In this document: positions 981 through 13,911 of the stretch, one piece after another
Position numbering within the stretch: the stretch's first letter is position 1
How the letters are laid out: the number at the start of each line of letters is the position of its first letter
Source of the DNA: Fibrobacter succinogenes subsp. succinogenes S85
Lineage (GTDB): Bacteria; Fibrobacterota; Fibrobacteria; Fibrobacterales; Fibrobacteraceae
NCBI RefSeq assembly: GCF_000146505.1
Contig: NC_017448.1
Span: 630,001 to 662,000, forward strand
DNA length: 32,000 nt
Direction of reading: 5' to 3'
Position numbers and translations under genes: made by a program
The notes under the pieces: generated by a model
The model's input: the letters and a program-made list of their open reading frames with translations, nothing else
Database searches by the model: none
What the model was told of the DNA's origin: nothing

Positions 981-1003
981 AGCCAAGCATTAACTTGGCT
1001 TTT
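981..1003 (+). terminator. Rho-independent terminator
   Basis: AGCCAAG-cattaa-CTTGGCT 7-bp stem followed by TTTaTaTTT. Confidence 0.5.
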
Positions 1004-1049
1004 ATATTTGTCACCAAAATTCAACAAGTTCAATGACGGTAGTTTAAGA

Positions 1050-2039
1050 ATGACAATTACAGATTATTTGACGAAAGATTGGGACGAAAGCAAAACCCTT
1101 ACCCGCGAAGAATGTTTGCAAATTTTAAATTTTCCGGATAATCAACTTGACTTGCTAATTGAAGCAGCATTCAAATTACGCACGAAATACAAAGGCAACC
1201 GTGTCAACATCCAGCTTTTGACGAATGTCCGTAGCGGCAACTGCACTCAAAATTGCGCCTATTGCGCCCAATCTCGCGATTCCCAAGCGCCCATTGAAAA
1301 ATACAAAAGCGTTTCGGACGACAAGCTCTACGGCGATAATAATCTTGTTGATGAATTTCACCTGTCTCGGCATTGCATCGGGCTTTCGGGCATGGGTTTC
1401 ACAGACAAAGAAATTGAAGAACTCGCCGAACGCATTGCGCACATGAAGAAATCGGGGACGCACATTTGTTGTTCCATCGGATTCTTGACCGAGCACCAAG
1501 CCCGCATTTTAAAGGCGGCAGGCCTTGACCGCATCAACCACAACCTGAATACGAGCCGCCGTTTTTACCCCGAAATTTGCAGCACCCACACATACGAGCG
1601 ACGCATCCAAAACATTCGCATGTTGCAGAGCATCGGCTTTGAAATATGCTGTGGCGGAATCATTGGCATGGGCGAATCAAAAGAAGACGTGGTCGATATG
1701 CTTTTTGACTTGGTCGCCATCCATCCAGAATCCGTCCCCATAAACTTTTTGTTGCCGGTCAAAGGCACACGCCTCGCCAACCGCGACATTTCCGGGCTCA
1801 CATTCGAATACGGCATCAAAATTCTTTGCCTAGCCCGCTTGTTGCTCCCGAAATCGGACATCCGCTGCGCCGCCGGTCGCGAAATCTATTTCAAAGGACA
1901 CGAAAAGGAACTCTTCAAAGTCGCCGATTCCATTTTCGCTTCGGGTTACCTCACCGAAGGCGGTCAAAGCTTGGAAGCCACATTCCGCCAAATCGAAAAC
2001 GCAGGCTTCACGTGGGCTATAGAAAGCAAAGACGAATAA
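1050..2039 (+). CDS. bioB: Biotin synthase-like radical SAM enzyme (BioB family)
   Basis: CxxxCxxC radical SAM motif CTQNCAYCAQS. BioB-like blocks NHNLNTS, EICCGGIIGMGE, PESVPINFLLPVKGT and RCAAGRE match the E. coli BioB Fe-S ligand positions. ATG 1050 is preferred over TTG 1008, which abuts the upstream terminator. Confidence 0.8.
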   Translation: MTITDYLTKDWDESKTLTREECLQILNFPDNQLDLLIEAAFKLRTKYKGNRVNIQLLTNVRSGNCTQNCAYCAQSRDSQAPIEKYKSVSDDKLYGDNNLVDEFHLSRHCIGLSGMGFTDKEIEELAERIAHMKKSGTHICCSIGFLTEHQARILKAAGLDRINHNLNTSRRFYPEICSTHTYERRIQNIRMLQSIGFEICCGGIIGMGESKEDVVDMLFDLVAIHPESVPINFLLPVKGTRLANRDISGLTFEYGIKILCLARLLLPKSDIRCAAGREIYFKGHEKELFKVADSIFASGYLTEGGQSLEATFRQIENAGFTWAIESKDE

Positions 2040-2058
2040 CCACTGAACAGGTCGCTTA

Positions 2059-2655
2059 GTGTCATTAGAAGTAGCACTTTCTCTTTTACTATACGCATTC
2101 GTCTCAGGAATTACACCGGGACCCGCGAACCTCTGTTCACTCTCAGTAGCGATGGGGAGCGGGAAAAGCGTCGCCATAAAGCAGTGGTACGGACTTTTCA
2201 CCGGATACACAATCGTCTCGCTAGTATCTGTTTTTATAGTTTATTTTATCAGTAGTGCTTTTGAAAATTTCATCCGGGTATTTGCTTTCGTCGGAGCAAT
2301 TTACATTGCATATTTGGCAATCAGCCTTTTAATTCAAGCGTTCAAGCCACTCGAAGAAATCCGCAACAGCCGCACAACCGGTAGCTTCAGCACAGGTCTT
2401 TTCGTGCAACTCACGAACGTTAAAATCATGGTGTTCTGCCTCACGGCAATCACAACCTACATCCTCCCCTACCACCAAGATTTTCCGCACCTGCTGCTGT
2501 TCGGCATACTATTGCCGCTTACAGGCCCCATCTGCAATTTGGCGTGGCTTTTCACAGGCGTTTTACTGCAAGGGCTTTTCAAAAAGCACCACAGAATATT
2601 CTATACACTTATGGGACTCTCGCTATTGTATTGCGCCATTGGGATTGTGAAATAG
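2059..2655 (+). CDS. LysE/RhtB-family amino-acid exporter
   Basis: 198 aa with about 6 TM segments. The N-terminal ..GITPGPANL.. signature is typical of LysE/RhtB translocators. GTG start. Confidence 0.7.
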   Translation: MSLEVALSLLLYAFVSGITPGPANLCSLSVAMGSGKSVAIKQWYGLFTGYTIVSLVSVFIVYFISSAFENFIRVFAFVGAIYIAYLAISLLIQAFKPLEEIRNSRTTGSFSTGLFVQLTNVKIMVFCLTAITTYILPYHQDFPHLLLFGILLPLTGPICNLAWLFTGVLLQGLFKKHHRIFYTLMGLSLLYCAIGIVK

Positions 2656-2741
2656 TAGTCTGATATAGCATTTTCTTTTTGAAGTAACAAATTATTGGGA
2701 ATAAAATATTACTATCATTCTCAATAAGAAGGAATTTCACT

Positions 2742-3767
2742 ATGAATCTGCATTTTTTCAAGACAGTTTTTGCAGTGGCGCTGGTGGCGGGCGCGGGTTG
2801 TTTTTTCGGTTGCTCTTCGGAGAAGGCTCCCGAGGTTGAGAACAACACGCTTGTCAATGTGTCTTACGATCCGACGCGTGAGTTCTATTCCAATTACAAT
2901 CATATTTTTATGAAGCATTGGAAAGAGGCTACCGGCAAGGATGTGAAAATTACGCAGTTTCATGGCGGTTCGGGCAAGCAGGCGCTTGAGGTGGTGAACG
3001 GGCTTGAAGCGGATGTGGTCACGCTCGCGCTGGAATACGACGTGAACATTGTCCGTGACGCAGGGCTTATTGAAAACGGCTGGGTCAAGGAATTTCCACG
3101 CAACAGCGCTCCTTACACTTCGACGATTGTGTTTCTCGTGCGCAAGGGGAATCCCAAGAAAATCAGTGACTGGAACGATCTCGTGAAGGACGGCATCGGC
3201 ATCATCACGCCAGATCCCAAAACTTCGGGCGGTGCGCGCTGGAATTATCTTGCGGCTTGGGCTTATGCAGAAAAGCAGTTCAACGGAGATGAGGAGCAAG
3301 TCAAAGGTTTCATGAAGAAGCTTTATCAAAATGTTCTTGACCTCGCTTCGGGCGCACGCGGTTCAACAAATACATTCATAGAAGAACGCAAGGGCGATGT
3401 GCTGCTTTCTTGGGAAAACGAGGCATTCCTTTCGCTCAAGGACTACCCCAAGGATTACGAAATCGTGATGCCGAGTGTGAGCGTTTTGGCAGAGCCTTCT
3501 GTCGCGATTGTAGATAAGATTGTAGACAAACGCAACACGCGCAAACTTGCGACGGAATACCTGAATTATCTATACTCTGACGAAGCGCAGCATGTTGCGG
3601 CAAGGCATCATTACCGTCCGACAAACAAGGCGATTCTTGACGAGTACAAAGAATTTGACCAGAATGTCAATCTGATTACGATTGAGCATTTTGGCGGTTG
3701 GGAAAATGCACAGAAGACGCACTTTTCCGAGTATGGGATTTTCGACCAGATTTACGAGAAAAATTAA
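2742..3767 (+). CDS. sbp: Sulfate/thiosulfate ABC transporter substrate-binding lipoprotein (Sbp/CysP type)
   Basis: 341 aa. Signal peptide with lipobox FFGC. The blocks SYDPTREFY, HGGSGKQA, TPDPKTSGGARWNYLAAW and NEAFL are characteristic of sulfate-binding proteins. No cysTWA permease or ATPase genes are adjacent. Confidence 0.85.
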   Translation: MNLHFFKTVFAVALVAGAGCFFGCSSEKAPEVENNTLVNVSYDPTREFYSNYNHIFMKHWKEATGKDVKITQFHGGSGKQALEVVNGLEADVVTLALEYDVNIVRDAGLIENGWVKEFPRNSAPYTSTIVFLVRKGNPKKISDWNDLVKDGIGIITPDPKTSGGARWNYLAAWAYAEKQFNGDEEQVKGFMKKLYQNVLDLASGARGSTNTFIEERKGDVLLSWENEAFLSLKDYPKDYEIVMPSVSVLAEPSVAIVDKIVDKRNTRKLATEYLNYLYSDEAQHVAARHHYRPTNKAILDEYKEFDQNVNLITIEHFGGWENAQKTHFSEYGIFDQIYEKN

Positions 3768-3865
3768 GCATTTCAAAGCGCAAATAAAGTAACAAAATCC
3801 TAGTTATAGAAGCACCTCGTTCAATAGCTGAGCGAGTTTTTTATAGCAACCCAAAACCTCTTTCC

Positions 3866-3933
3866 TATAGAAAATACCTATTAAAAGCCATATAAAATTA
3901 GTATTGGACAATTACACATTTGCGTTCTATATT
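3866..3933 (+). promoter_or_regulatory. Conserved promoter/operator module, copy 1 (upstream of metY)
   Basis: TATAGAA (3866-3872), then ATAAAATTAGTATTGGACAA, then TTCTATATT (3925-3933). TGGACA and TATATT are 17 nt apart, which is sigma70-like. The same module with the same 59-nt TATAGAA/TTCTATA offset recurs at 5235 and 8331. The downstream leader ends in GTACGGAGA before the start codon. Confidence 0.5.
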
Positions 3934-3973
3934 TACCCACAAAATTTATAGGATTATGTACGGAGAATGTTGA

Positions 3974-5203
3974 ATGGATTTTAATACGACTTTATTGCAT
4001 CATAATTTTGAAAGTGAACGAAGTACCGGCTCTACGCTTACCCCTATTTATCAAGTCAGTGCATTTTCGCAAGAATCCGCAGAGAAACTCGAAGCTGTTT
4101 TTAACAATAGGGCTCCGGGTTTTGCATATACGCGCATTGGAAACCCCACGACAGATTCTTTCGAAAGGCGCATTGCATCTCTTGAAAAGGGCATTGGCGC
4201 CATAGCCTGCTCGTCGGGCATGGCTGCCGTGACGATGTCGCTCTTGAACATTTTGCAGTCCGGCGACGAAGTTATTGCAAGTACGGCATTGTTTGGCGGC
4301 ACGATCGACTTGTTCCACGATTTGGAAGCATTCGGCATTAAAACCCGTTACGTCACAGAAGTTACCGCTGAGAGCGTTCGTTCACAATTGAGCGATAAGA
4401 CCAAGGCAGTTTTTACAGAACTTATCGGCAACCCGAAACTCAATGTCGTTGATATTCAAAGCGTTGCAGATGTCGCACACGAAGCAGGCGTCCCGCTGAT
4501 TGTCGACAGCACGACGGCAACTCCTTACCTTGTTCATCCTTTTGATTTTGGCGCAGATATCGTTGTCCATTCCTCTTCCAAGTACATCAATGGAAACGGC
4601 AGTGCCATCAGCGGCATCATCGTCGATAGCGGAAAATTCAAGTGGGATTACACCAAATACAAGGGCTTGGAAGAATACAAGCGCTTTAGCAAGTTTGCGT
4701 ACCTCGCAAAGCTCCGCAACGGAGTCTGGCGCAACATTGGTTGTTGTCTCGCACCCGCTACCGCATTCCTCAACTCGCTCGGGCTTGAAACTCTCGGGCT
4801 CCGCATGGAACGCCTTTGCGATAACGCTTTGCAGCTCGCTGAATTTTTGCAGGGTTTCGAAGGCATCAAGGTCAACTACCCCGCATTGAAGGGCAATCCC
4901 TATTACGATCTCGTTCAAAAGCAGTTTAACGGCAAGGGCGGCGCCATCATCTCGATTGACGCAGGCTCCAAAGAAAAGGCTTTCAAGCTCATCAACAACT
5001 TGAAATACGCTACAATAGCCACGAACATTGGCGACTTGCGCACACTCGTCATCCACCCGGATAGCACGATTTTCACGCACAGTACCAAACTGCAAAAAGA
5101 AAACGCAGGCGTGTTCGAAGGTTCCATCCGCATCAGCGTAGGCATTGAAGATATTGCCGATCTCAAGGAAGATTTCGAACAAGCTATAAAGCAGATTTCG
5201 TAG
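3974..5203 (+). CDS. metY: O-acetylhomoserine sulfhydrylase (Cys/Met-metabolism PLP enzyme, MetY type)
   Basis: 409 aa. Blocks PIYQVSAF, YTRIGNPT, LFGGT and GADIVVHSSSKYINGNG (PLP lysine). IVDSGKFKW is typical of OAH/OAS sulfhydrylases. Confidence 0.85.
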   Translation: MDFNTTLLHHNFESERSTGSTLTPIYQVSAFSQESAEKLEAVFNNRAPGFAYTRIGNPTTDSFERRIASLEKGIGAIACSSGMAAVTMSLLNILQSGDEVIASTALFGGTIDLFHDLEAFGIKTRYVTEVTAESVRSQLSDKTKAVFTELIGNPKLNVVDIQSVADVAHEAGVPLIVDSTTATPYLVHPFDFGADIVVHSSSKYINGNGSAISGIIVDSGKFKWDYTKYKGLEEYKRFSKFAYLAKLRNGVWRNIGCCLAPATAFLNSLGLETLGLRMERLCDNALQLAEFLQGFEGIKVNYPALKGNPYYDLVQKQFNGKGGAIISIDAGSKEKAFKLINNLKYATIATNIGDLRTLVIHPDSTIFTHSTKLQKENAGVFEGSIRISVGIEDIADLKEDFEQAIKQIS

Positions 5204-5234
5204 CTATTAACCATTGACTAATAACTAACGACCA

Positions 5235-5302
5235 TATAGAAAATTTCAATAACTCAGCATAAAAATTAAGTATTGGACAAGTTAAAAAACGCGTTCTATA
5301 TT
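5235..5302 (+). promoter_or_regulatory. Conserved promoter/operator module, copy 2 (upstream of tusA-like gene)
   Basis: TATAGAA 5235-5241, TTGGACA 5273-5279, TTCTATATT 5294-5302. Nearly identical to copy 3 across about 70 nt. The leader ends in GTACGGAGA before ATG 5334. Confidence 0.5.
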
Positions 5303-5333
5303 TAGCATCAAAATTAAAGTACGGAGATAAAAA

Positions 5334-5582
5334 ATGTCAGAAGAAATTAAAGTAGACGATACCGTCGACGTCACCGATGTCAAATGCCCCACTACATTTG
5401 TCAAGGCTAAAGTCGCTATCGAAGAACTTGACGAAGGTCAGATTCTCGCAATCCGCCTGAACGACGGCGAACCGGTGCAGAATGTGCCGCGCAGCCTCAA
5501 GGAAGAAGGTCACGAAATCCTCAAGCTCAACGACAATCAGGACGGAACCTTTACACTCTTTGTGAAAAAAGTCGGGGACTAA
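5334..5582 (+). CDS. tusA: TusA/SirA-family sulfurtransferase
   Basis: 82 aa. Conserved D-V-x-C-P active-site cysteine motif (DVKCPTTFVKAK). The size and pattern fit the TusA family. Confidence 0.8.
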   Translation: MSEEIKVDDTVDVTDVKCPTTFVKAKVAIEELDEGQILAIRLNDGEPVQNVPRSLKEEGHEILKLNDNQDGTFTLFVKKVGD

Positions 5583-5594
5583 CCCCAAAAGGCG

Positions 5595-5615
5595 ATCCCG
5601 GAATAAATCCGGGAT
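5595..5615 (+). other. Perfect 8-bp stem-loop between tusA and the carrier gene (no T-run)
   Basis: ATCCCGGA-ataaa-TCCGGGAT, followed by GACAG and no U-tract, so not an obvious terminator. It shares a GGATGACAG word with 22702-22710. Confidence 0.5.
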
Positions 5616-5654
5616 GACAGCGAAAACAATTTAAACAAAAAAGGAATTTCAAAC

Positions 5655-5861
5655 ATGATTATTACCGTAGTTGGAAACAAGAAAGAAGTTAAAGACGGCC
5701 TCACCGTCGCAGAACTCATTGAACAAGAAAAGGTAGAAACGCCGCAGTACGTGACCGTTTCCGTGAACGATGAATTTGTCGAAAACGGAAATTTCGCAAC
5801 TACCGCCCTCAAGGACGGCGACAACGTCGAATTCCTCTACTTCATGGGAGGTGGTCAGTAA
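5655..5861 (+). CDS. ThiS/MoaD-family ubiquitin-like sulfur-carrier protein with one residue (Gln) after the diglycine
   Basis: 68 aa with a ThiS-like pattern (..LKDGDNVEFLYFMGGGQ*). The stop TAA overlaps the ATG of the E1 gene (TAATG at 5859-5863). Confidence 0.8.
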   Translation: MIITVVGNKKEVKDGLTVAELIEQEKVETPQYVTVSVNDEFVENGNFATTALKDGDNVEFLYFMGGGQ

Positions 5862-6670
5862 TGGCTTTTACTAACGAACAACTCGAACGCTATTCCCGCC
5901 ACATCATCCTCAAGGAAGTGGGTGCAAAGGGCCAGAAGAAGCTTTTGAACGCCAAGGTGCTCGTCATTGGCGCAGGTGGCCTCGGTGCTCCTGTCGCTAT
6001 GTACCTCGCCGCCGCAGGCGTTGGCACCATTGGCATTGCCGATGCAGACGTCGTTGACCTTTCCAATTTGCAGCGCCAGATTATCCATGCTACAAAGGAC
6101 GTGGGTAAGCCCAAGGTGCAGTCCGCCAAGGAAACGATGGAAGCGATGAACCCGGATGTCAAGGTGATTACGTATCACACGTTCGTCACTAGCGAAAACA
6201 TCATGGACCTCATCAAGGATTACGATTTTATCATTGACGGAACCGACAACTTTCCGGCAAAGTTCCTCATCAACGACGCTTGCGTCATGGCCAAGAAGCC
6301 GTTCTCTCACGCGGGCATTATCCGCTTCCAGGGGCAGCTCATGACGTACGTTCCGGGTCAAGGTCCGTGCTACCGCTGTGTTTTCAAGGAACCCCCTCCG
6401 AAAGATGCCGTGCCGACTTGCAAACAGGCAGGCGTGATCGGCGCTATGGGCGGTGTAATCGGTAGCCTCCAGGCGATGGAAGCCATCAAGTACATTCTCG
6501 GTGTCGGCAATCTGCTCACGGGCTACTTGCTCACCTACAATGCGCTCACGATGGAATTCCGCAAGATCAAGCTCCCGACGCATACGAAAGATTGCGCAGT
6601 CTGCGGTGACCACCCGACGATTGACCATCTGATCGACTACGAACAAGCCGTCTGTGAGATGAAGCACTAA
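5861..6670 (+). CDS. ThiF/MoeB/HesA-family E1-like adenylyltransferase (no rhodanese domain)
   Basis: 269 aa. YSRHIIL, the nucleotide loop VIGAGGLGAP, DxDxVxxSNLQRQ, and two CxxC pairs (CYRC, CAVC). Confidence 0.85.
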   Translation: MAFTNEQLERYSRHIILKEVGAKGQKKLLNAKVLVIGAGGLGAPVAMYLAAAGVGTIGIADADVVDLSNLQRQIIHATKDVGKPKVQSAKETMEAMNPDVKVITYHTFVTSENIMDLIKDYDFIIDGTDNFPAKFLINDACVMAKKPFSHAGIIRFQGQLMTYVPGQGPCYRCVFKEPPPKDAVPTCKQAGVIGAMGGVIGSLQAMEAIKYILGVGNLLTGYLLTYNALTMEFRKIKLPTHTKDCAVCGDHPTIDHLIDYEQAVCEMKH

Positions 6671-6679
6671 GGAATTTCA

Positions 6680-7090
6680 ATGATTACAATTTCAAAAGAT
6701 GATTATCAAAAAATCCTGGAGCATGCCCAGAAGAACCTCCCCGAAGAGGCTTGCGGGCTGATAGCCGGGAAAATTGAGGGGAACGACAAGCACATTGAAA
6801 AGGTCTATTTGCTCACGAACATAGACCATTCCAATGAGCACTTTTCGCTTGACCCCAAGGAACACTTAGCCGCCATCAAGGATATGCGCCAAAACGGCCT
6901 ATCCCCGCTTGGTAACTGGCATTCCCACCCCGAGTCCCCGTCGCGCCCGTCGCAAGAAGACAAGCGCCTCGCTTTCGACAGCAAGGCTAGCTACTTGATT
7001 CTTTCGCTGATGGATCGTGAAAATCCGGTGCTCAATTCGTTCCATATCGAAGGCGACAATGCCACGAACGAAGGCTTGGTAATCGGGTAA
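6680..7090 (+). CDS. JAMM/MPN+ metallopeptidase (Mec+/HcyD/CysO-hydrolase type), paralogue 1
   Basis: 136 aa. Upstream catalytic Glu (EEACG) and a complete JAMM motif HSHPESPSRPSQED (H-x-H-x7-S-x2-D). Confidence 0.85.
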   Translation: MITISKDDYQKILEHAQKNLPEEACGLIAGKIEGNDKHIEKVYLLTNIDHSNEHFSLDPKEHLAAIKDMRQNGLSPLGNWHSHPESPSRPSQEDKRLAFDSKASYLILSLMDRENPVLNSFHIEGDNATNEGLVIG

Positions 7091-7107
7091 AGGTCTCCGT
7101 ACAAACG

Positions 7108-7154
7108 GCGCCCCTGGGATCCTTCTGAAATTCCGATTCCGGGGGCGCTTTTTT
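7108..7154 (+). terminator. Terminator-like stem-loop between the two JAMM genes
   Basis: GCGCCCC (7108-7114) pairs with GGGGCGC (7142-7148) around a long loop. TTTTTT follows at 7149-7154. Confidence 0.4.
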
Positions 7155-7169
7155 ATAGGGGAAATTTTA

Positions 7170-7550
7170 ATGATGGCCAAATATAGTAAAAACATTTATG
7201 AACAAATGGTTTTAGCAGCCAAAAAAGCATATCCGAACGAATGCTGTGGCATTTTGGTGGGTAAAAAGTCCGAACAGAGCGAAATCGAAGTGACCGAAAT
7301 TCGCGAAGCCGAGAACCAGTTTCAAGGGCAGAAAGCAGTCCACTTCAAAATAGACCCGCTATATCTTTACCACTTGGAGCAAGAACTTGATCCGCGCGGT
7401 CTTGAAATTGTCGGCATTTACCATTCACACCCCGACTGCCCCGCCATTCTCTCCAAAGAAGACGAAAAATACATGGTTCCTGGCCTCGAATACGTCATCA
7501 TGTCCGTGCAAAACGGCGAAGTCGTGGATGTGAAAAGCTATAGGAAATGA
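7170..7550 (+). CDS. JAMM/MPN+ metallopeptidase, paralogue 2
   Basis: 126 aa. NECCG Glu motif and JAMM motif HSHPDCPAILSKED (H-x-H-x7-S-x2-D). Confidence 0.8.
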   Translation: MMAKYSKNIYEQMVLAAKKAYPNECCGILVGKKSEQSEIEVTEIREAENQFQGQKAVHFKIDPLYLYHLEQELDPRGLEIVGIYHSHPDCPAILSKEDEKYMVPGLEYVIMSVQNGEVVDVKSYRK

Positions 7551-7565
7551 GTTTAGAGTTTCTGT

Positions 7566-7583
7566 TGTAAAAATATTTTTACA
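7566..7583. repeat. Perfect 18-bp palindrome TGTAAAAATATTTTTACA
   Basis: Read directly: the two 9-nt halves are exact reverse complements. It lies just after JAMM2 and upstream of the toxin-antitoxin pair. Confidence 0.8.
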
Positions 7584-7761
7584 TCATTCTTGCTAACGGT
7601 AGATTGCAAAATTTAAGCAGTTTCCGTTTTTCGTGATTATCGTTTGTAGATTTACCTCAAACATAAAAATGAGGTCTAAAAGGATAATGTCTAGCAACAC
7701 CAAAGTTCACACTCAAGGGAAAAAATATATTTTAATGGAGTCTGTTTTTCCGGAGGCTTTT

Positions 7762-7989
7762 ATGACATATTCTGAAATTGAAGAAAAAATCAGAAAAGTG
7801 CCTGAGGAATATCTTGCCATCATCGACGCCTTTATCGACGGATTGATGATTCAGCATCAAATGAAAAAGAAACCATCCGATGAATTAACCGCCGCCATCA
7901 AAGAAAGCGAAGCCATGCTCAACGATCCGAACGCAAAGAAGTTCGATTCCGTAGATGCTCTATTTGCTGATCTTGATGCGGAGGAATAG
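7762..7989 (+). CDS. Type II antitoxin (RelB/DinJ-like partner of YafQ)
   Basis: ATG 7762 is preceded by GGAGG (7752-7756). The product is a 75-aa acidic protein ending ..KKFDSVDALFADLDAEE. Its stop TAG is immediately followed by the toxin ATG. The listed start 7633 lacks an RBS and adds an implausible N-terminus. Confidence 0.6.
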   Translation: MTYSEIEEKIRKVPEEYLAIIDAFIDGLMIQHQMKKKPSDELTAAIKESEAMLNDPNAKKFDSVDALFADLDAEE

Positions 7990-8265
7990 ATGGCATATCA
8001 AATCGAATACACCTCTCGTTTCAAGAAAGAATACAAATTGGCAAAAAAGAGGGGACGCGACATAAATTTGTTGCGAACCGTCATTGAGATTCTTGCAAAA
8101 GGCGAGCCTCTCCCAGAAAAATACAAGGACCATCCACTGGTATCTAATTGGAGCGGATATCGCGAATGCCATATTCAAAGCGATTGGTTGCTGATTTACA
8201 AGTACAAGGACAATGAACTCATTTTGAGTTTAACAGCAACAGGCTCACATAGCGATTTATTCTAA
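7990..8265 (+). CDS. yafQ: YafQ/RelE-family type II toxin (mRNA interferase)
   Basis: 91 aa. FKKEYKLAKKRG, PLPEKYKDHPL.G, WSGYRECHI.DWLLIY, and a terminal H..L(F) pattern typical of YafQ toxins. Confidence 0.8.
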   Translation: MAYQIEYTSRFKKEYKLAKKRGRDINLLRTVIEILAKGEPLPEKYKDHPLVSNWSGYRECHIQSDWLLIYKYKDNELILSLTATGSHSDLF

Positions 8266-8273
8266 AACATTTA

Positions 8274-8298
8274 GGGCAGCCCAAAGCTGTCCGTTTTT
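8274..8298 (+). terminator. Rho-independent terminator after the TA pair
   Basis: GGGCAGC-ccaaa-GCTGTCC (one G-U pair) followed by gTTTTT. Confidence 0.55.
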
Positions 8299-8330
8299 GT
8301 AATAACCTACGATAACTAAAAGCCTTCAGT

Positions 8331-8398
8331 TATAGAAAAAATCAATAAGTTCGCATAAAAATTAAGTATTGGACAAACGCGTTTTTACGTTCTATATT
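8331..8398 (+). promoter_or_regulatory. Conserved promoter/operator module, copy 3 (upstream of Ubl-E1-rhodanese gene)
   Basis: TATAGAA 8331-8337, TTGGACA 8369-8375, TTCTATATT 8390-8398. A longer leader carries GTACGGA twice (8439, 8461) before GTG 8475. Confidence 0.5.
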
Positions 8399-8474
8399 TC
8401 AGCACGAAAAAATCCTATAGCTATTGTGGGAAAATTTGTACGGAACAACCACTTTTTAATGTACGGAGAAAAAA

Positions 8475-9953
8475 GTGAGAATTTATATATCAGCAACCCT
8501 TAGGAATTTCTTCGGGAAAAACGCGCAAGTCAGCGTCCCCGAAAACACGGTTAGAAAGGCTCTCGCCAATTTAATAAGTACTTATCCAGAAGGAGAAAAA
8601 GTCCTTTTTGATGAAAACAACAAGCTCAGAAGTTTCATCAAGATCTACCTCAATGGCAAGAATTTGAACGTCGATACACTCTGGGACGCCACACTTGAAG
8701 ACGATTCCGAAATTTTGCTTTTGCCCGCCATCGCAGGCGGCGCACCGATTGAAGAATCGCAAAGCAAACACGTCGAAAGCTTGATTTCTGACGAAAGACG
8801 CAAGGAAGTCGCTTTTGACGATAGCGAAATTGAACGCTTCGGCAAGCACCTGATGCTCAAAGACATCGGCGTCAAGGGCCAAAAGCGCATCAAGGCCGCA
8901 AAAGTCGTCGTCATTGGCGTTGGCGCACTCGGCTCTCCGGTGATCCAGTATCTCGCCGCCGCAGGCGTTGGCACCATCAAGGCCATCGACTTCGACGAAG
9001 TCTCGCTCGAAAACTTGCAAAGCCAGGTATTGCACGGCACACGCGACGTCAAGCGTCCGAAGGTCGCCTCAGCAAAGGACAAAGTCAAAAACATCAACAA
9101 GAATATCGTCTTTGAAGCCGTCAAGGAACAGCTCGACGCATCGAACATCGAAGCCGAAATTGAAGGCTACGATCTCGTTATTGACTGCACGGACAACTAC
9201 AAGGCTCGCTACCTGATCAACGACGCTTGCGCTCTGCACGGCATTCCGCTTGTGTTCGGCGCGATTTACCAGTTCGAAGGCCAAGTCGGCATTTTCAACT
9301 TGGATGGCGGTCCATGCTTGCGTTGCCAATACCCATCCCCTCCGCCGGCAGGGCTCATCCCCTCCTGCGCAGAAGGCGGCGCCATCAGCCCGCTCCCGGG
9401 AATCATCGGCAGCATCCAGGCAAACGAAGCGCTCAAGCTCATCTTGGGAATCGGTGAACACCTGAACGGCAAAATTCTCCACGTGGATAGTTTGTACTTA
9501 TCTTCGAGAATTTTCAAGGTCGAACGCGATTGCCATTGCCCGATTTGCGGTAACAATCCGACAATCACAAACGTCGAAGATATCGACTACGAAGACCTTT
9601 GCGGATTGAAGACCACAAACGAAACGCCTGTGGAAGGATTCACGCCCGAAGAACTCGCCAAGCGCATCGACAACGGCGACGACATCACAATTGTTGACGT
9701 CCGCGAGCCGCACGAACGCGCGATTTTGCGTTTCCCGAACGCCATCGTGATTCCAATCGGACAGCTCGTTCGCAGACAAAAGGAACTCGATCCAAATAAG
9801 GATACGATTTTCATTTGTAAACAAGGCAAGCGTAGCGAACTTGCCATCAACACATTGCGCGAAGCGGGCTACACCGGTCCTCTGTACAACTTAAAGGGCG
9901 GTATCGACGCAATGAAGGACATCATGTTCTCACACGAAGGCGCTTGGTTATAA
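8475..9953 (+). CDS. Triple fusion: MoaD/ThiS-like Ubl domain (internal GG), ThiF/MoeB E1 domain and rhodanese domain
   Basis: 492 aa. Residues 1-89 are beta-grasp-like and end LLLPAIAGG (GG codons 8736-8741). A linker follows, then the E1 domain (VIGVGALGSP, SLENLQSQ, CLRC and CPIC). The C-terminal rhodanese has the active-site loop FICKQGKRS (Cys codon 9816-9818). GTG start with RBS GGAG. Confidence 0.85.
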   Translation: MRIYISATLRNFFGKNAQVSVPENTVRKALANLISTYPEGEKVLFDENNKLRSFIKIYLNGKNLNVDTLWDATLEDDSEILLLPAIAGGAPIEESQSKHVESLISDERRKEVAFDDSEIERFGKHLMLKDIGVKGQKRIKAAKVVVIGVGALGSPVIQYLAAAGVGTIKAIDFDEVSLENLQSQVLHGTRDVKRPKVASAKDKVKNINKNIVFEAVKEQLDASNIEAEIEGYDLVIDCTDNYKARYLINDACALHGIPLVFGAIYQFEGQVGIFNLDGGPCLRCQYPSPPPAGLIPSCAEGGAISPLPGIIGSIQANEALKLILGIGEHLNGKILHVDSLYLSSRIFKVERDCHCPICGNNPTITNVEDIDYEDLCGLKTTNETPVEGFTPEELAKRIDNGDDITIVDVREPHERAILRFPNAIVIPIGQLVRRQKELDPNKDTIFICKQGKRSELAINTLREAGYTGPLYNLKGGIDAMKDIMFSHEGAWL

Positions 9954-10108
9954 CGTAGGGCTTTGAATAGGGAAAAGCTATGTCAAAAAAATTTTTCGAC
10001 AAGGGCAGATTTTCGTAACAACAAAATAAGCTTATTATTTTCTAACATTCACATCTAAATACTAGGAAAATAGTTTTAAACACAACTAACAATAAGAGGT
10101 AAACCATT

Positions 10109-11071
10109 ATGGCAAATGAAGCAGAAAAGAACACGGGCATTAATGCCCTCGGCGCCAAGGCCGCTTACAACCTGGCGAACGTCACCAAGACCAAGCCGCA
10201 ATTTGGCGCGCTCACGCCCAAGTGGCTCACCAAGTTCCTTGAATTCAAGGGTCTCGAAACAGGTCTTTTCCGCGTGAACAAGGTCGTCGAAGGCCAGACA
10301 CCGCTCGACGTTCTTTGCAGCGCTACCAAGAAGTCCGATATCATCCCGGAAGGCTACGTCGAATACGAAACCGAACCGCGCGAATACAAGCTCAACTCCA
10401 TCTCCACGATCATCAACGTCAACACCGCTATCGAAGACGTTTACAGCTCCCCGTATGATCAGGTTCAGGAACAGCTCGGTCTCGCTATCGAATCTCTCCG
10501 CGAACGTCAGGAAAGCCAGCTCATCAACAACGATGACTACGGTCTCTTGAAAAACATCGCTGACTCTCAGCGCATCCAGCCGCTCCGTGCCGATGGCCGC
10601 CCGACTCCGGACGATCTCGATGAACTCATTTCGAAGGTTTGGAAGGAACCGTCCTTCTTCCTCGCCCACCCGCGTGCTATTGCCGCATTCGCCCGTGAAT
10701 GCACCCGCCGTGGCGTGCCGCCTGTCGTTGTAGACCTCGCCGGTAGCAGATTCCTCACCTGGCGCGGCATTCCTCTCGTTCCGACCGACAAGCTCCTTGT
10801 CGATGGCGTGAAGAACCCGAAGTCTCAGGGTGGCAAGACCAACATCTTGCTCGTCCGTACTGGCGAAGCCAAGCGCGGCGTTATCGGTCTCTTCCAGGCC
10901 GGTCTCAAGAACGAACACTCCCGTGGCCTCTCTGTGCGTTTCCGCGGTATCGACAACAAGGGCGTTGCATCTTACCTCTTGTCTCTGTACTGCTCTGCCG
11001 CAATTCTCGCAGACGACGCTATCGCCGTGTTAGAAGATGTCGAGGTTGGCGAATACTATGACTACGAATAA
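10109..11071 (+). CDS. Family 2A encapsulin shell protein (SrpI-like, no cNMP-binding insertion)
   Basis: 320 aa. Long conserved blocks recalled from SrpI-type encapsulins: WKEPSFFLAHPRAIAAFARECTRRGVPP, TWRGIPLVPTDK, LSVRFRGI, ASYLLSLYCS. RBS AAGAGG. It sits directly upstream of a desulfurase with a disordered N-terminus. Confidence 0.8.
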   Translation: MANEAEKNTGINALGAKAAYNLANVTKTKPQFGALTPKWLTKFLEFKGLETGLFRVNKVVEGQTPLDVLCSATKKSDIIPEGYVEYETEPREYKLNSISTIINVNTAIEDVYSSPYDQVQEQLGLAIESLRERQESQLINNDDYGLLKNIADSQRIQPLRADGRPTPDDLDELISKVWKEPSFFLAHPRAIAAFARECTRRGVPPVVVDLAGSRFLTWRGIPLVPTDKLLVDGVKNPKSQGGKTNILLVRTGEAKRGVIGLFQAGLKNEHSRGLSVRFRGIDNKGVASYLLSLYCSAAILADDAIAVLEDVEVGEYYDYE

Positions 11072-12800
11072 TCCAGAAACCAGATCGCTGGAAGAACTCG
11101 CCGGAGTTCCCAATGCGGCTGAACTGGAGCAATTGGCAAATGCGTATTTCCCGGATTTGACGGATAGCGCATACGCAGCAACCCCCGCCGCTCCCGAAGC
11201 GCAGAACGCATCTGCCGCTCAGGGAGTCAGTGCAGCTCAGGGTGCCGCAGCCATCAGCCAGACTCCAGCCTTCGACTGGGAACACCCCTTTGCGACCTAT
11301 GGCGACCAGCCGACATCCTCGGCTCCGTTTGCCTATGGCGGAAGTTCTACAGACACCTGGCTCAACACGGTTGAAGCCCCTGCGGTTCCCGAATCGCAGT
11401 TTGCATCGCAGCTGAGCGATATTCCGACAGCCCCCGCACCGGCTCAGGGTTACTCCCCGAAGGTCGTGTCCAAGACGCAGGCTGCCGAAGCTAGCCGCCA
11501 GATCGATGCACCGACTTCTCTCGGTGGCGATTCCGTGAAGACGGGTTCTGCAAACAGCGGCGCAAATTCTCGCAACGATTCCATCCGCATCGGTTCCAAG
11601 ACTCTTGCCCAGATCCGTTCTGACTTCCCGATTCTCTCGAAGCAGATCAACGGTCATCCGCTCGTTTGGCTCGATAACGGTGCAACAACGCAGCGCCCGC
11701 AGGTAGTCATTGACCGCCTCAAGTACTACTACGAAAACGAAAACTCCAACGTTCACCGTGGCGCTCACACGCTCGCGGCCGCATCGACAGACGCCTACGA
11801 AAACGCACGCAACATCGTTCGTGACTTTATCGGCGCTCCGTCCTCGCAGGAAGTTGTTTTCGTTCGCGGTACAACAGAAGCCATTAACTTGGTTGCAAAT
11901 GCCTACGTGAAGCCGACGCTCCAGCCGGGTGACGAAATCATCGTCTCCATTTTGGAACACCACGCCAACATCGTTCCGTGGCAGCTCATTGCCGAAGAAA
12001 CGGGCGCAATCATCAAGGTGATTCCGTGCGATTCTACCGGTCAGCTCAAGCTCCACGATTACGAAGCATTGTTCACGAAGCGTACCAAGTTCGTTTCCGT
12101 GACGCACGTTTCGAACGTGCTCGGCACTGTAACCCCGATTGAAGAACTCATCGCCATCGCTCATAGACACGGCGTGAGAATCCTCATTGACGGCGCTCAG
12201 TCCATCGCTCACATCCCGGTAAACGTTGCAGCCCTCGATGCAGACTTCTTCGTGTTCTCTGGACACAAGGTGTTTGCTCCGACCGGTATCGGCGTTGTCT
12301 ATGGCAAGAAGGAATTGCTTGAAGCAGCAAGACCTTACCATGGCGGCGGCAACATGATTGCGGACGTCACGTTCGAACGCACGATTTACAACGGAATTCC
12401 GAACAAGTTCGAAGCTGGTACCGGAAGCATCGCCGACGCTGTTGGCCTCGGTGCAGCCCTCCAGTACCTCACTGAAATCGGGATGCCGTGCGTATTCCGC
12501 TGGGAACATGAACTGTTGCAGTACGGCCTCAAGGAATTGAAGACTGTCAAGGGTATCCACCTTGTGGGAACCGCACTCAACAAGGCTTCTGCGCTTGCCT
12601 TCAAGCTCGACGGTTATTCCGACGAAGAAGTGGGCAAGAGACTCGACGCATACGGCGTTGCCGTTCGCACCGGGCATCACTGCGCTCAGCCAGTTCTCCG
12701 CCATTTCGGCTACGAAAGTACCGTGCGACCCACACTCGCATTGTACAACTCACCGGATGACATCGACGCCCTCGTAAGAGCGTTGAAGACATTCGCATAG
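11058..12800 (+). CDS. Group II (SufS/CsdA-type) cysteine desulfurase with about 185-aa disordered N-terminal extension (encapsulin cargo type)
   Basis: The catalytic part starts near 11613 (IRSDFPILS..LDNGATTQ). PLP lysine in FSGHKVFAPTG and active-site RTGHHCAQP. The N-terminus is Ala/Pro/Ser/Gln-rich and contains LEQLANAYFP (11124-11153). ATG 11058 (GAGG 12 nt upstream) overlaps the encapsulin 3' end by 14 nt. ATG 11037 is an alternative start. Confidence 0.85.
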   Translation: MTTNNPETRSLEELAGVPNAAELEQLANAYFPDLTDSAYAATPAAPEAQNASAAQGVSAAQGAAAISQTPAFDWEHPFATYGDQPTSSAPFAYGGSSTDTWLNTVEAPAVPESQFASQLSDIPTAPAPAQGYSPKVVSKTQAAEASRQIDAPTSLGGDSVKTGSANSGANSRNDSIRIGSKTLAQIRSDFPILSKQINGHPLVWLDNGATTQRPQVVIDRLKYYYENENSNVHRGAHTLAAASTDAYENARNIVRDFIGAPSSQEVVFVRGTTEAINLVANAYVKPTLQPGDEIIVSILEHHANIVPWQLIAEETGAIIKVIPCDSTGQLKLHDYEALFTKRTKFVSVTHVSNVLGTVTPIEELIAIAHRHGVRILIDGAQSIAHIPVNVAALDADFFVFSGHKVFAPTGIGVVYGKKELLEAARPYHGGGNMIADVTFERTIYNGIPNKFEAGTGSIADAVGLGAALQYLTEIGMPCVFRWEHELLQYGLKELKTVKGIHLVGTALNKASALAFKLDGYSDEEVGKRLDAYGVAVRTGHHCAQPVLRHFGYESTVRPTLALYNSPDDIDALVRALKTFA

Positions 12801-12801
12801 C

Positions 12802-12914
12802 AGGTCGCGTCCTTCGGACGCTTTGAGCGATGAGGTCGCACCTGCGGTGCTTTGGGGTTCTGAGCTATAGCCCATACCTCAGAGGGAGCCGCAGGCGACC
12901 GACCCCATACCTCA
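12802..12914. repeat. Cluster of short hairpin/direct repeats in the desulfurase-cysE spacer
   Basis: AGGTCGC followed by a hairpin occurs twice: GCGTCC-ttc-GGACGC at 12807-12821 and GCACC-tgc-GGTGC at 12838-12850. An inverted GGCGACC lies at 12894-12900. CCCATACCTCA occurs twice (12871-12881 and 12904-12914). Confidence 0.6.
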
Positions 12915-12948
12915 TACCTTATCATTACTTCTTATTTTTCAAAAATCT

Positions 12949-13911
12949 ATGCACGAACTTATCCAAGAATCTGAAGTTGAAAAAGCCGTACAAATTATTT
13001 TTGACGATTACAATCGCGGCAAGCATATCGACAATATCGATATTTACAATCGACCCGACCAGGCCGAAATCCAGACAATTTTGCAGAATCTGATTCGAGT
13101 CGTTTATCCTGGACACTTCAGAGATCGTTCGCATAAGATTTACAATCCCAAGAACAGCTTTGCAGTTCTTATCGAAGATACGTTCTACCACCTTCACAAG
13201 CAGGTGGCGATTGCGCTAGATTACTGCAAATTGCGCGGTTCCATGACCTCGGACGAGCGCAAAATTGAAAGCTATAGAATTTGTAAGGAATTCTTCGCCA
13301 AGATTCCGCAAATCCGCGAATTCCTGGAAACCGATTTACACGCCGCTTTTGACGGCGACCCTGCTGCCGGCTGCCTTGACGAGATTATCCTCGCCTACCC
13401 CGGTCTCATGGCGACAACCATTTACCGCATCGCCCACGAACTTTATCTTTTACACGTTCCGGTTCTCCCGCGACTCATGACCGAATATGCCCATTCCAAA
13501 ACAGGCATCGACATCCATCCGGGTGCAACCATCGGCAAATACTTCTTTATCGATCACGGCACAGGCATTGTGATTGGCGAAACCGCAGTCATCGGCAAGA
13601 ACGTCAAGATTTACCAAGGCGTCACGCTAGGCGCACTTTCAACTCGCGGCGGACAAAAGCTCTCCGGCAAAAAGCGCCACCCCACCATTCAAGACAACGT
13701 CACTATTTACGCGGGAGCATCCATTCTCGGCGGAGATACCGTTGTTGGCGAAAACGCAATTATCGGCGGCAACGCCTTCATCACGCGATCCATTGAGGCC
13801 AACACTCGCGTCAGCCTCAAGAATCTTGAAATGGATTACGTTTCAACCACCAATAGCAAGCACAAGACCGAAGAACTCCAGCAAAGCGACGAGTGGTACT
13901 ATATTATTTAG
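12949..13911 (+). CDS. cysE: Serine O-acetyltransferase (long-form CysE/EpsC type)
   Basis: 320 aa. Left-handed beta-helix hexapeptide repeats (GIDIHPGATIGKYFFIDHGTGIVIGETAVIGKNVKIYQGVTLG) and the SAT N-terminal helical domain. Confidence 0.85.
   Translation: MHELIQESEVEKAVQIIFDDYNRGKHIDNIDIYNRPDQAEIQTILQNLIRVVYPGHFRDRSHKIYNPKNSFAVLIEDTFYHLHKQVAIALDYCKLRGSMTSDERKIESYRICKEFFAKIPQIREFLETDLHAAFDGDPAAGCLDEIILAYPGLMATTIYRIAHELYLLHVPVLPRLMTEYAHSKTGIDIHPGATIGKYFFIDHGTGIVIGETAVIGKNVKIYQGVTLGALSTRGGQKLSGKKRHPTIQDNVTIYAGASILGGDTVVGENAIIGGNAFITRSIEANTRVSLKNLEMDYVSTTNSKHKTEELQQSDEWYYII

Follow-up and report, generated by a model that had tools for sequence, protein, structure and literature searches.

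Introduction

The CysO/MoeZ/Mec+/CysM system of Mycobacterium tuberculosis is built from a carrier protein ending in Gly-Gly (GG), an activating enzyme (E1) joined to a rhodanese domain, a JAMM peptidase, and a pyridoxal phosphate (PLP)-dependent sulfhydrylase; the HcyS/HcyF/HcyD/MetY methionine pathway of Wolinella succinogenes is its analogue. In these pathways the carrier is a separate protein, from which the JAMM enzyme removes 0–2 residues. Here we describe a locus of Fibrobacter succinogenes subsp. succinogenes S85 with the same cast, in which a ubiquitin-like (Ubl) carrier, the E1, and the rhodanese are instead encoded as one polypeptide with a 403-residue 'tail' behind the GG, and in which the sulfur source encoded alongside is a probably encapsulated cysteine desulfurase. 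The locus lies in a window of 32,000 nucleotides (contig NC_017448.1, positions 630,001 to 662,000; assembly GCF_000146505.1). The fusion, Ubl-GG::E1::rhodanese, occupies positions 8475–9953 of the forward strand; coordinates below are those of the window, and the genes given with coordinates lie on the same strand. Judged by homology, synteny, and precedent, the fusion is probably a pro-protein, a reading to which we assign a probability of roughly 0.6: JAB2, a JAMM peptidase encoded upstream, would cut between G89 and A90, and the freed carrier would then serve the E1-rhodanese.

Several GG carriers are known that are made in frame with a partner protein and have to be cut after the GG to work, namely MoaX, DR2607 with its peptidase DRJAMM, and SAMP1-MoaE with HvJAMM1. 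MoaX must be cleaved after G82 for activity (PMC4326299). DRJAMM cleaves the linear MoaD-MoaE fusion of Deinococcus radiodurans and exposes a C-terminal Gly, a step needed in vivo, and HvJAMM1 cleaves linear SAMP1 fusions (PMC8832034); the cutter in the Deinococcus and Haloferax linear fusions is a JAMM enzyme. The carrier is N-terminal there as it is here. The partner in MoaD-MoaE, however, is the synthase subunit MoaE and the process is molybdopterin synthesis, whereas the partner here is an E1-rhodanese, which stands upstream in the pathway, the setting is sulfur amino-acid metabolism, and the cleavage is predicted.

Ubl-E1 fusions have been catalogued since 2006, with no experimental study of one among the papers found. 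Iyer, Burroughs & Aravind (2006; PMC1779556) described Ubl-ThiF fusions of the Campylobacter jejuni type, in which an N-terminal Ubl 'distinct from ThiS' is placed on an E1-like Rossmann domain, mostly in thiamine operons and often with a solo ThiS in the operon; a non-carrier role was proposed for these rhodanese-less proteins, and the idea of a JAB peptidase releasing a fused ThiS or MoaD goes back to the same work. Ubl-E1-TBP fusions of Thaumarchaeota were reported by Makarova & Koonin (2010; PMC2948915). With these reports, a widespread two-domain family described below, and the established JAMM cleavage of MoaD-MoaE, the novelty is lower than was assumed in a preliminary description of the window made from its sequence. 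The present fusion differs from the Ubl-ThiF fusions in its CysO/SAMP1-type carrier, invariant GG, rhodanese, dedicated JAB, and encapsulin context. Database entries with its architecture are common and are labelled simply MoeB or ThiF; no paper on a three-domain Ubl-E1-rhodanese architecture, nor one linking an encapsulin to ThiF- or MoeB-type E1 enzymes, was found among the open-access papers searched, which is weak evidence. What appears to be new is the three-domain form CysO-like::E1::rhodanese, together with a JAMM that is dedicated to it and coupled to it in translation, and the fact that a desulfurase encapsulin always accompanies it.

Domain architecture and integrity of the fusion

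The open reading frame (ORF) at 8475–9953 (+), stop codon included, translates without an internal stop into 492 residues from a GTG start. The start is credible because the Shine-Dalgarno-like sequence GTACGGAGA, which is also present 5′ of the MetY and TusA genes, stands 5 nt 5′ of the GTG, and because the N-termini of aligned homologues open with MK[VI]YISATLR. Profile searches confirmed all three domains: Pfam ThiS (PF02597) at residues 4–89 (25.0 bits against a cut-off of 22.5), ThiF (PF00899) at residues 124–356 (E 3.7e-74), and Rhodanese (PF00581) at residues 390–480 (E 2.6e-15).

The E1 adenylation domain is of the MoeB/ThiF type (residues 115–359, 8817–9551; PF00899 and MoeB alignment) and contains a GVGALGS P-loop and a DCTDN motif, both conserved across homologues, and a CLRC plus CPIC zinc site whose cysteines are invariant in 53 aligned homologues. 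Its best solved relative is Escherichia coli MoeB, with residues 5–248 of 1jw9_B aligned to residues 115–359 of the fusion (E 4e-55). Cys298 (codon 9366–9368), in the crossover loop IPSCAEGG, aligns with the MoeB Cys of LTCVEAG and is likewise invariant in the 53 homologues. The rhodanese domain (residues 390–480, 9642–9914) bears the loop C448-KQGKR-S, with an invariant C448 encoded by TGT at 9816–9818. The NCBIfam MoeZ and MoeB models span residues 110–481, both under their equivalog cut-offs; the MoeZ profile NF005902 covers residues 116–480 with 354.2 bits against an equivalog cut-off of 647. By these scores the E1-rhodanese part is a subfamily distinct from MoeZ with the same domain plan. 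A full-length AlphaFold2 (AF2) model, of moderate quality (predicted local distance difference test score, pLDDT, of 70), gave Foldseek matches to Uba4 (6yub_A) and MoeB. From the domain searches and structural matches, the protein is best described as a CysO-like carrier joined to a MoeZ-like E1-rhodanese.

The anatomy given in the preliminary description holds in every detail: one uninterrupted 492-codon ORF, a β-grasp at residues 1–89, GG codons at 8736–8741 (GGC GGC), a ThiF/MoeB domain with GxGxxG and CLRC/CPIC motifs, and a rhodanese with C-KQGKR-S and its Cys codon at 9816–9818. What it missed is the linkage to a desulfurase encapsulin, the most informative part of the context.

A search of 5.8 billion proteins, clustered at 90% identity, returned >120 clusters with 100% query coverage, 68–99% identity, and lengths of ∼485–492 aa. 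In a scan of one genome per species, the continuous fusion ORF was found in 80 loci (L001–L080), distributed over Fibrobacter, Lachnospiraceae, other Clostridia, Ruminobacter (Gammaproteobacteria), Thermoguttaceae, and other Planctomycetes; a Spirochaetaceae contig also bears it. Most of these genomes derive from rumen or gut samples, and the window itself is 99% identical to a metagenome-assembled genome of rumen F. succinogenes. The ∼70% identity between the Fibrobacter and Lachnospiraceae proteins points to horizontal spread of the fusion.

The preliminary description had raised the worry that a missed stop or frameshift might conceal separate Ubl and E1 genes. A few short entries do end soon after the GG (P0122, 99 aa; P0125, 97 aa) and could be split or frameshifted. 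Yet the ORF is continuous in 80 independent assemblies from several phyla and in the >120 full-coverage clusters, with protein conservation in one frame on both sides of the junction. A missed stop or frameshift is thereby rejected, and an error of assembly or sequencing has a probability close to nil.

The carrier domain and the Gly-Gly junction

Residues 1–89 (8475–8741), ending in LLLPAIAGG, form a β-grasp carrier of the CysO/SAMP1/MoaD type according to Pfam, NCBIfam, AF2, and Foldseek. The best-scoring profile for this domain is NCBIfam SAMP1, aligned over positions 5–91 of 91 and ending exactly at G89 (E 4e-14; 52.9 against a cut-off of 60); moaD_arch, aligned over positions 3–88 of 88, ends at exactly the same residue (42.3 against a cut-off of 49.5); on the fusion, the two models cover residues 3–89. 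Modelled in isolation, the 89 residues adopt a β-grasp with a pLDDT of 90.8. The top Foldseek matches are M. tuberculosis CysO (3dwg_C; TM 0.84, E 2.7e-7) and Haloferax volcanii SAMP1 (3po0), with A. orientalis CysO (4n6e_B) and Urm1 among the further ones.

An exhaustive HMMER search with residues 1–112 (749 representatives) showed that the closest relatives outside the fusion family are free-standing proteins of 90–92 aa. These align almost gaplessly, with isolated single-residue indels only, and terminate at the position of G89 with ...P(A/S)(I/V)AGG; others bear short tails past the GG. This places the fused domain squarely in a family of carriers that work through the carboxylate of their GG. 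In the fusion, however, the GG is internal to the primary translation product, at the very position where both profiles stop and the free homologues have their C-terminus, and a free carboxylate there would require processing.

The carrier is the fastest-evolving part of the protein, with 40–54% identity between Fibrobacter and Lachnospiraceae against 75–84% for the rhodanese part. Within the first 107 residues of the 53-homologue alignment, T8, P84, A87, G88, and G89 are the sole invariant columns, and the GG is kept in 78 of the 80 loci. Invariance of the GG in a domain that otherwise diverges this fast indicates strong constraint. The dipeptide is encoded at 8736–8741, and the predicted scissile bond is G89–A90. 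Ala-Pro follows the GG in 64 of the 78 GG-bearing loci and Pro occupies the P2′ position in 71; thereafter the linker (residues 90–114, 8742–8816) continues with a stretch of variable length, the distance from the GG to the E1 start motif being 15–25 residues, and then with the conserved S(I/L)ISDERRK..DDxE(I/V)ER(F/Y). Residues 85–100 have a pLDDT below 50 in the full-length model and are predicted to be disordered. A variable and disordered stretch directly behind the GG fits an exposed cleavage linker.

The resemblance to SAMP1 raises the question of whether the released carrier would act mainly as a SAMP/Urm1-like protein modifier. The E1 would then activate it for attachment to lysines of proteins such as the encapsulin shell, the desulfurase, or enzymes of sulfur assimilation, and JAB2 would be the deconjugase. 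For the N-terminal domain, SAMP1 is the top-scoring profile, and SAMP1 and Urm1 are among the structures that it resembles; JAMM enzymes deconjugate SAMPs (PMC8832034). Both SAMP1 and Urm1 double as sulfur carriers and protein modifiers. Structurally, however, the domain is closest to CysO, a dedicated carrier, the neighbourhood has no E2 or E3, and the neighbours all have to do with the metabolism of sulfur and amino acids (sulfhydrylase, desulfurase, acetyltransferase, TusA, sulfate-binding protein). A role mainly in modification, which would be compatible with processing of a pro-protein, is thus very improbable.

A separate case among the relatives is P0141 (190 aa), a tandem di-Ubl of two CysO/SAMP-like domains, each ended by GG (..VPAIAGG-ATATQN...FVPQAAGG-QI). 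By its sequence it would be a polyubiquitin-like precursor of the sulfur-carrier type.

Linkage to JAB2 and joint loss of GG, JAB2, and Cys298

The proposed processing enzyme, JAB2 (7170–7550), is a 126-aa JAMM/MPN+ metalloprotease (Prok-JAB, E 1.3e-23). Its catalytic Glu lies in NECCG and is followed by HSHPDCPAILSKED, which reads as HxHx7Sx2D, a motif intact in all 73 JAB2 orthologues; among solved JAMM structures with a bound carrier, Pyrococcus furiosus JAMM1 (5lda) is the closest. For linkage counts, the window genes were mapped onto the 80 loci with tblastn and phmmer, and loci with enough flanking DNA were scored. JAB2 is directly upstream of the fusion in 71/75 loci from several phyla, and in many Lachnospiraceae its stop codon overlaps the start of the fusion (−1, −4, and similar). 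In the window, a toxin-antitoxin pair (7633–8265) lies between the two genes; it consists of a RelE/YafQ-family toxin (7990–8265; NCBIfam RelE_StbE, YafQ) and a putative antitoxin upstream of it. Besides the window, only L001 and L007 have the pair at this junction; in other loci, JAB2 adjoins the fusion or overlaps it.

A JAB is missing from the 7–10 kb upstream in L079 and L080 only, both of them planctomycete loci. Their fusion proteins (L079, 7141–8778; L080, 10001–11740, each in the coordinates of its own locus) and a third protein with the same sequence changes, P0176, to which the statement on JAB does not extend, are 545–579 aa long and have Gly-Glu in place of Gly-Gly. All three have also lost Cys298, PSCAEGG being changed to PPDGE or PPGGE, and are the sole cases of such loss. 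The linker behind the GG position is replaced by a long Cys-rich repeat (e.g. CGSPCDSGCESV several times over), which could be a metal-binding or polysulfide-binding segment, while the rhodanese Cys and the C-terminal tail are retained. The joint loss suggests that GG, JAB2, and Cys298 behave as one functional unit.

E1 adenylation requires a free α-carboxylate, so that an uncleaved GG cannot act as a carrier. The preliminary description had left two options, a precursor that a JAMM enzyme must excise or a tethered domain working in cis. The comparative evidence favours the first, with the cleavage itself predicted, because relatives end at the GG, the linker is variable and disordered, JAB2 is linked to the fusion, and the three features are lost together. 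Its suggestion that one of the two upstream JAMM enzymes would do the cutting can be narrowed down: JAB2, next to the fusion in 71/75 loci and often coupled to it, is the likely partner, and JAB1 goes with ThiS, ThiF, and TusA.

The precursor might instead be cut by JAB1, a housekeeping protease, or autoproteolysis, leaving JAB2 to hydrolyse adducts or carrier-protein conjugates. Mec+ and HcyD hydrolyse adducts in the CysO and HcyS pathways, and in L048 the GG is present with no JAB2 upstream and only a JAB1-like gene downstream. The protease of M. tuberculosis MoaX is unidentified, and cleavage of MoaX fails in E. coli (PMC4326299). On the other hand, JAB2 is the most tightly linked upstream gene, often with overlapping stop and start; the bond after the GG is the same one that a Mec+/HcyD-type enzyme cuts, which makes a second protease unnecessary; and DRJAMM and HvJAMM1 cut linear fusions directly. 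Processing by an agent other than JAB2 is therefore quite improbable.

The second carrier module and two-domain relatives

A second carrier is encoded in the same cluster. TusA (5334–5582), ThiS (5655–5861, ending in GGGQ), ThiF (5861–6670; 269 aa, without a rhodanese), and JAB1 (6680–7090), all assigned by Pfam and NCBIfam, form a module that corresponds to neighbourhood type 4e of Iyer et al. (2006; PMC1779556). It accompanies the fusion cluster in 32/35 fully sampled loci and shifts its position as a block. As this block moves as a unit apart from the fusion, JAB1 can be assigned to ThiS and JAB2 to the fusion. In nearly all of 51 loci the separate ThiS has 1–5 residues past GGG (GGGC, GGGQ, GGGR, GGGSYGIL, and others); it too would thus need JAMM trimming, presumably by JAB1, like HcyS-Ala, another carrier that must be trimmed. 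By sequence, then, the cluster encodes two carriers, both in need of JAMM maturation. Neither the annotated ORFs of the window nor the genes listed for those related loci that were examined include thiamine genes such as ThiG, ThiH, or ThiC.

A search with a more distant fused relative revealed a large two-domain Ubl-GG::E1 family (PF02597 plus PF00899; about 361–368 aa) in Chloroflexota, Acidobacteriota, Thermomicrobiales, Treponema, and Firmicutes. Its members share the carrier type and the ...PA(I/M)AGG junction with the three-domain fusion and keep the GG, but the linker can be as short as 2–4 residues (e.g. AIAGG-QV-LTEEQVNRYSRH), no rhodanese is fused, no encapsulin is present, and a JAB is not always nearby. 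In the contexts retrieved (L081–L085, for P0374, P0381, P0361, and P0367), the genes adjoin Rrf2 regulators and PALP-family sulfhydrylases, and the further partners vary between a solo ThiS, DsrEFH-TusA, and rhodanese-JAB-rhodanese. The last is seen in L085, with the gene order PALP, Ubl-GG::E1, rhodanese, JAB, rhodanese; no separate carrier gene is present, and the fused Ubl is therefore the only candidate carrier there, which in an independent lineage supports a carrier role for the fused domain.

These observations bear on whether the Ubl might never be released and instead have a regulatory, adaptor, or pseudo-substrate function. It could, for instance, control access to the E1 site, or bring the E1-rhodanese to a sulfhydrylase in the way that CysO docks on CysM, and the true substrate of the E1 would then be the separate ThiS nearby. 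A solo ThiS is indeed present in the window and in the 32/35 loci mentioned, and two-domain relatives with 2–4-residue linkers and an adjoining solo ThiS sometimes have no nearby JAB. The solo ThiS, however, has its own E1, TusA, and JAB1, which move as a unit independent of the fusion. A permanently attached Ubl would leave unexplained the invariant GG, the variable disordered linker, the coupling to JAB2, and the joint loss of GG, JAB2, and Cys298; L085 lacks any solo Ubl, and the free homologues are genuine GG-terminated carriers. Retention of the Ubl is accordingly unlikely.

Several points weigh against cleavage of a pro-protein by JAB2. The window does contain a separate ThiS, albeit with its own E1 and JAB. 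L081, L083, and L084 keep the GG with no JAB within 6–8 kb, and in L081 and L082 a solo ThiS-family gene adjoins the two-domain protein, a pattern of fused Ubl plus solo ThiS from which Iyer et al. (2006; PMC1779556) inferred a non-carrier role for Ubl-ThiF fusions. The linkage of JAB2 could reflect only adduct hydrolysis of the Mec+/HcyD type, although for this, too, the GG would have to be free. GG, JAB, and Cys298 were probably lost together just once in evolution, phylogenetically n = 1, and the full-length AF2 model (pLDDT 70) is uninformative on docking of the Ubl to the E1. As a general rule, the notion that GG conservation implies cleavage is weakened by the two-domain relatives that have a GG and no JAB within 6–8 kb; for this reason the pro-protein assignment relies on the combined features and not on the GG alone.

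Proposed model for maturation and sulfur transfer

Processing of the pro-protein (54,087 Da) would begin with hydrolysis of G89–A90 by JAB2, yielding a 9,973 Da carrier (9,842 Da without Met1) with a free Gly-Gly carboxylate and a 44,132 Da E1-rhodanese; the cut is predicted to leave NLNVDTLWDATLEDDSEILLLPAIAGG as the last peptide of the carrier and APIEESQSK as the first of the E1-rhodanese. Next, G89 would be adenylated by the E1, which, like MoeB, is probably a dimer. Cys448 of the rhodanese would be persulfidated with sulfur from the encapsulated cysteine desulfurase or from shell-stored sulfur, and its persulfide would attack the acyl-adenylate; resolution of the acyl-persulfide by Cys298 or an external thiol would give carrier-COSH. 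The thiocarboxylate would feed a PLP-dependent sulfhydrylase, MetY in the window and CysK/CysM-like enzymes in some relatives, which would convert O-acetylhomoserine or O-acetylserine (the latter from the acetyltransferase of the operon) into a carrier-amino-acid adduct. JAB2 would finally hydrolyse the adduct after the GG to release homocysteine or cysteine and regenerate the carrier. Since a single peptidase activity, cutting after GG, is called for, JAB2 would serve maturation and turnover alike. The fused arrangement would guarantee 1:1 synthesis of carrier and E1, with the carrier inert until JAB2 acts.

Both a source and a sink for sulfur are encoded alongside, the encapsulin and desulfurase 3′ of the fusion and MetY or a PALP-family sulfhydrylase by JAB2. 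The candidate thiocarboxylate acceptor in the window is a MetY-like O-acetylhomoserine sulfhydrylase (3974–5203; Cys_Met_Meta_PP, E 5e-113). The gene directly 5′ of JAB2 is usually a PLP-dependent sulfhydrylase, MetY in many loci; in L088 it is a PALP (CysK/M-like) gene that runs into the start of the JAB gene, and L048 has a CysK/M-like gene directly upstream of the fusion.

If the model is right, one chain contains a Ubl carrier together with the E1 that acts on it, and a JAMM peptidase has to part the two; this would resemble the processing of eukaryotic ubiquitin precursors with the activating enzyme as the fusion partner.

The desulfurase encapsulin operon

A family 2A encapsulin shell protein of the SrpI-like type (10109–11071; PF19307, E 1.2e-92) is encoded immediately downstream of the fusion in 66/66 loci, and a cysteine desulfurase (11037–12800; Aminotran_5 at residues 210–579, E 1.9e-136) comes next in 58/58. 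The desulfurase is likely the encapsulin cargo, a role taken from Benisch & Giessen (PMC10925157), and the ∼200 residues that extend it N-terminally are as expected for a family 2A cargo-loading region. The last 35 nt of the encapsulin gene (11037–11071) also belong to the longest ORF of the desulfurase. Further downstream, in 41/52 loci, is a hexapeptide-repeat acetyltransferase (12949–13911), probably a serine O-acetyltransferase (Hexapep above its cut-off; SATase_N weak and under its cut-off).

According to Benisch & Giessen (PMC10925157), the canonical operon consists of a rhodanese-like domain (RLD) protein, the encapsulin, the desulfurase, and an acetyltransferase ('AT'), to which the acetyltransferase of the window corresponds. 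The order of shell, N-extended desulfurase, and acetyltransferase is the same as in operons of the Acinetobacter baumannii / Synechococcus SrpI type, where a rhodanese-containing gene is also directly 5′ of the shell gene. As encapsulin and desulfurase always follow it, the fusion occupies the rhodanese slot of a desulfurase-encapsulin operon. The difference is that the canonical operon has a single-domain RLD, whereas the rhodanese here is the third domain of a 492-aa protein; multidomain rhodaneses were removed from the published dataset (PMC10925157).

Most encapsulin-associated RLDs have a Lys at loop position 5 (PMC10925157), as does the fusion with CKQGKR. Orthology of its rhodanese to the encapsulin-associated Ab-RLD is unsupported: 2FSX, the solved structure closest to Ab-RLD (44% identity), is absent from the PDB matches at E ≤ 0.01, and agreement with Ab-RLD extends to the operon slot and this Lys only. 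No split version, with separate carrier and E1-rhodanese genes by an encapsulin, was seen in a search with SrpI among its best 120 matches, which are all at least 84% identical and belong to one clade; two genomic contexts from this search again bear the fusion.

The mechanism by which stored sulfur is remobilised is called 'so far unknown' in this literature, and the functions of the acetyltransferase and rhodanese genes of encapsulin operons are likewise given as unknown (PMC10925157). The Ubl-E1-rhodanese pro-protein together with its JAMM might supply the missing means of withdrawing sulfur from desulfurase encapsulins, a tentative proposal for which we judge the odds to be somewhat unfavourable. 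Were it true, sulfur would pass from the shell to the rhodanese Cys, on to a thiocarboxylate on the JAMM-released carrier, and into cysteine or homocysteine by way of the acetyltransferase and the sulfhydrylase. Cleavage of the pro-protein would then be the switch that opens the sulfur store, protein-thiocarboxylate chemistry would be connected to encapsulin sulfur storage, and the acetyltransferase and rhodanese genes would be given a function. The strict linkage to encapsulin and desulfurase makes this a testable route for the recovery of sulfur stored in compartments.

Other features of the locus

The fusion belongs to a sulfur island that extends over about 1000–13911 of the window and is also seen in L001–L080, L087, and L088. 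As a block of ten genes it is common to Fibrobacter, Lachnospiraceae and other Clostridia, Ruminobacter, Planctomycetes, and Spirochaetes at 57–99% protein identity, and its genes include those for the sulfhydrylase, JAB2, the fusion, the encapsulin (81–99% identical across loci), the desulfurase, the acetyltransferase, and the ThiS-ThiF-JAB1-TusA set; the island of the window additionally contains BioB, a LysE/EamA-type exporter, and a sulfate-binding protein. High identity across several phyla indicates that the block has been transferred horizontally among rumen and gut bacteria. Its spread points to a trait that would be important for the sulfur economy of these habitats.

An 81-nt repeat precedes several transcription units of the island, with copies at 3866–3946 (5′ of MetY), 5235–5315 (5′ of TusA), and 8331–8411 (+; 5′ of the fusion), and a weaker copy at 941–1021 (5′ of BioB). 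The repeat reads TATAGAAAA..GCATAAAAATTAAGTATTGGACAA-N17-TATATT and contains identical sigma-70-like hexamers as a promoter-like element, TGGACA-17 nt-TATATT. Because a repeat with identical hexamers precedes these units, a single regulon common to MetY, TusA, the fusion, and BioB is suggested by the sequence. No RNA regulator such as an S-adenosylmethionine (SAM) riboswitch was matched by Rfam in the window, the 81-nt repeat included, at gathering thresholds. In the window, where the toxin-antitoxin pair parts the fusion from JAB2, the fusion thus has a promoter-like element of its own; a terminator-like hairpin is located at 8274–8292, past the RelE/YafQ toxin gene.

The fusion ends in a C-terminal tail, MFSHEGAWL (residues 484–492, 9924–9950), that is near-invariant in all the phyla, yet is predicted to be disordered (pLDDT below 50). 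H487 to L492 are at least 90% conserved in the 53 homologues, and the tail is retained even in the degenerate planctomycete variants. It looks like a candidate short linear docking motif, the partner of which is perhaps the encapsulin shell, the desulfurase, or the sulfhydrylase.

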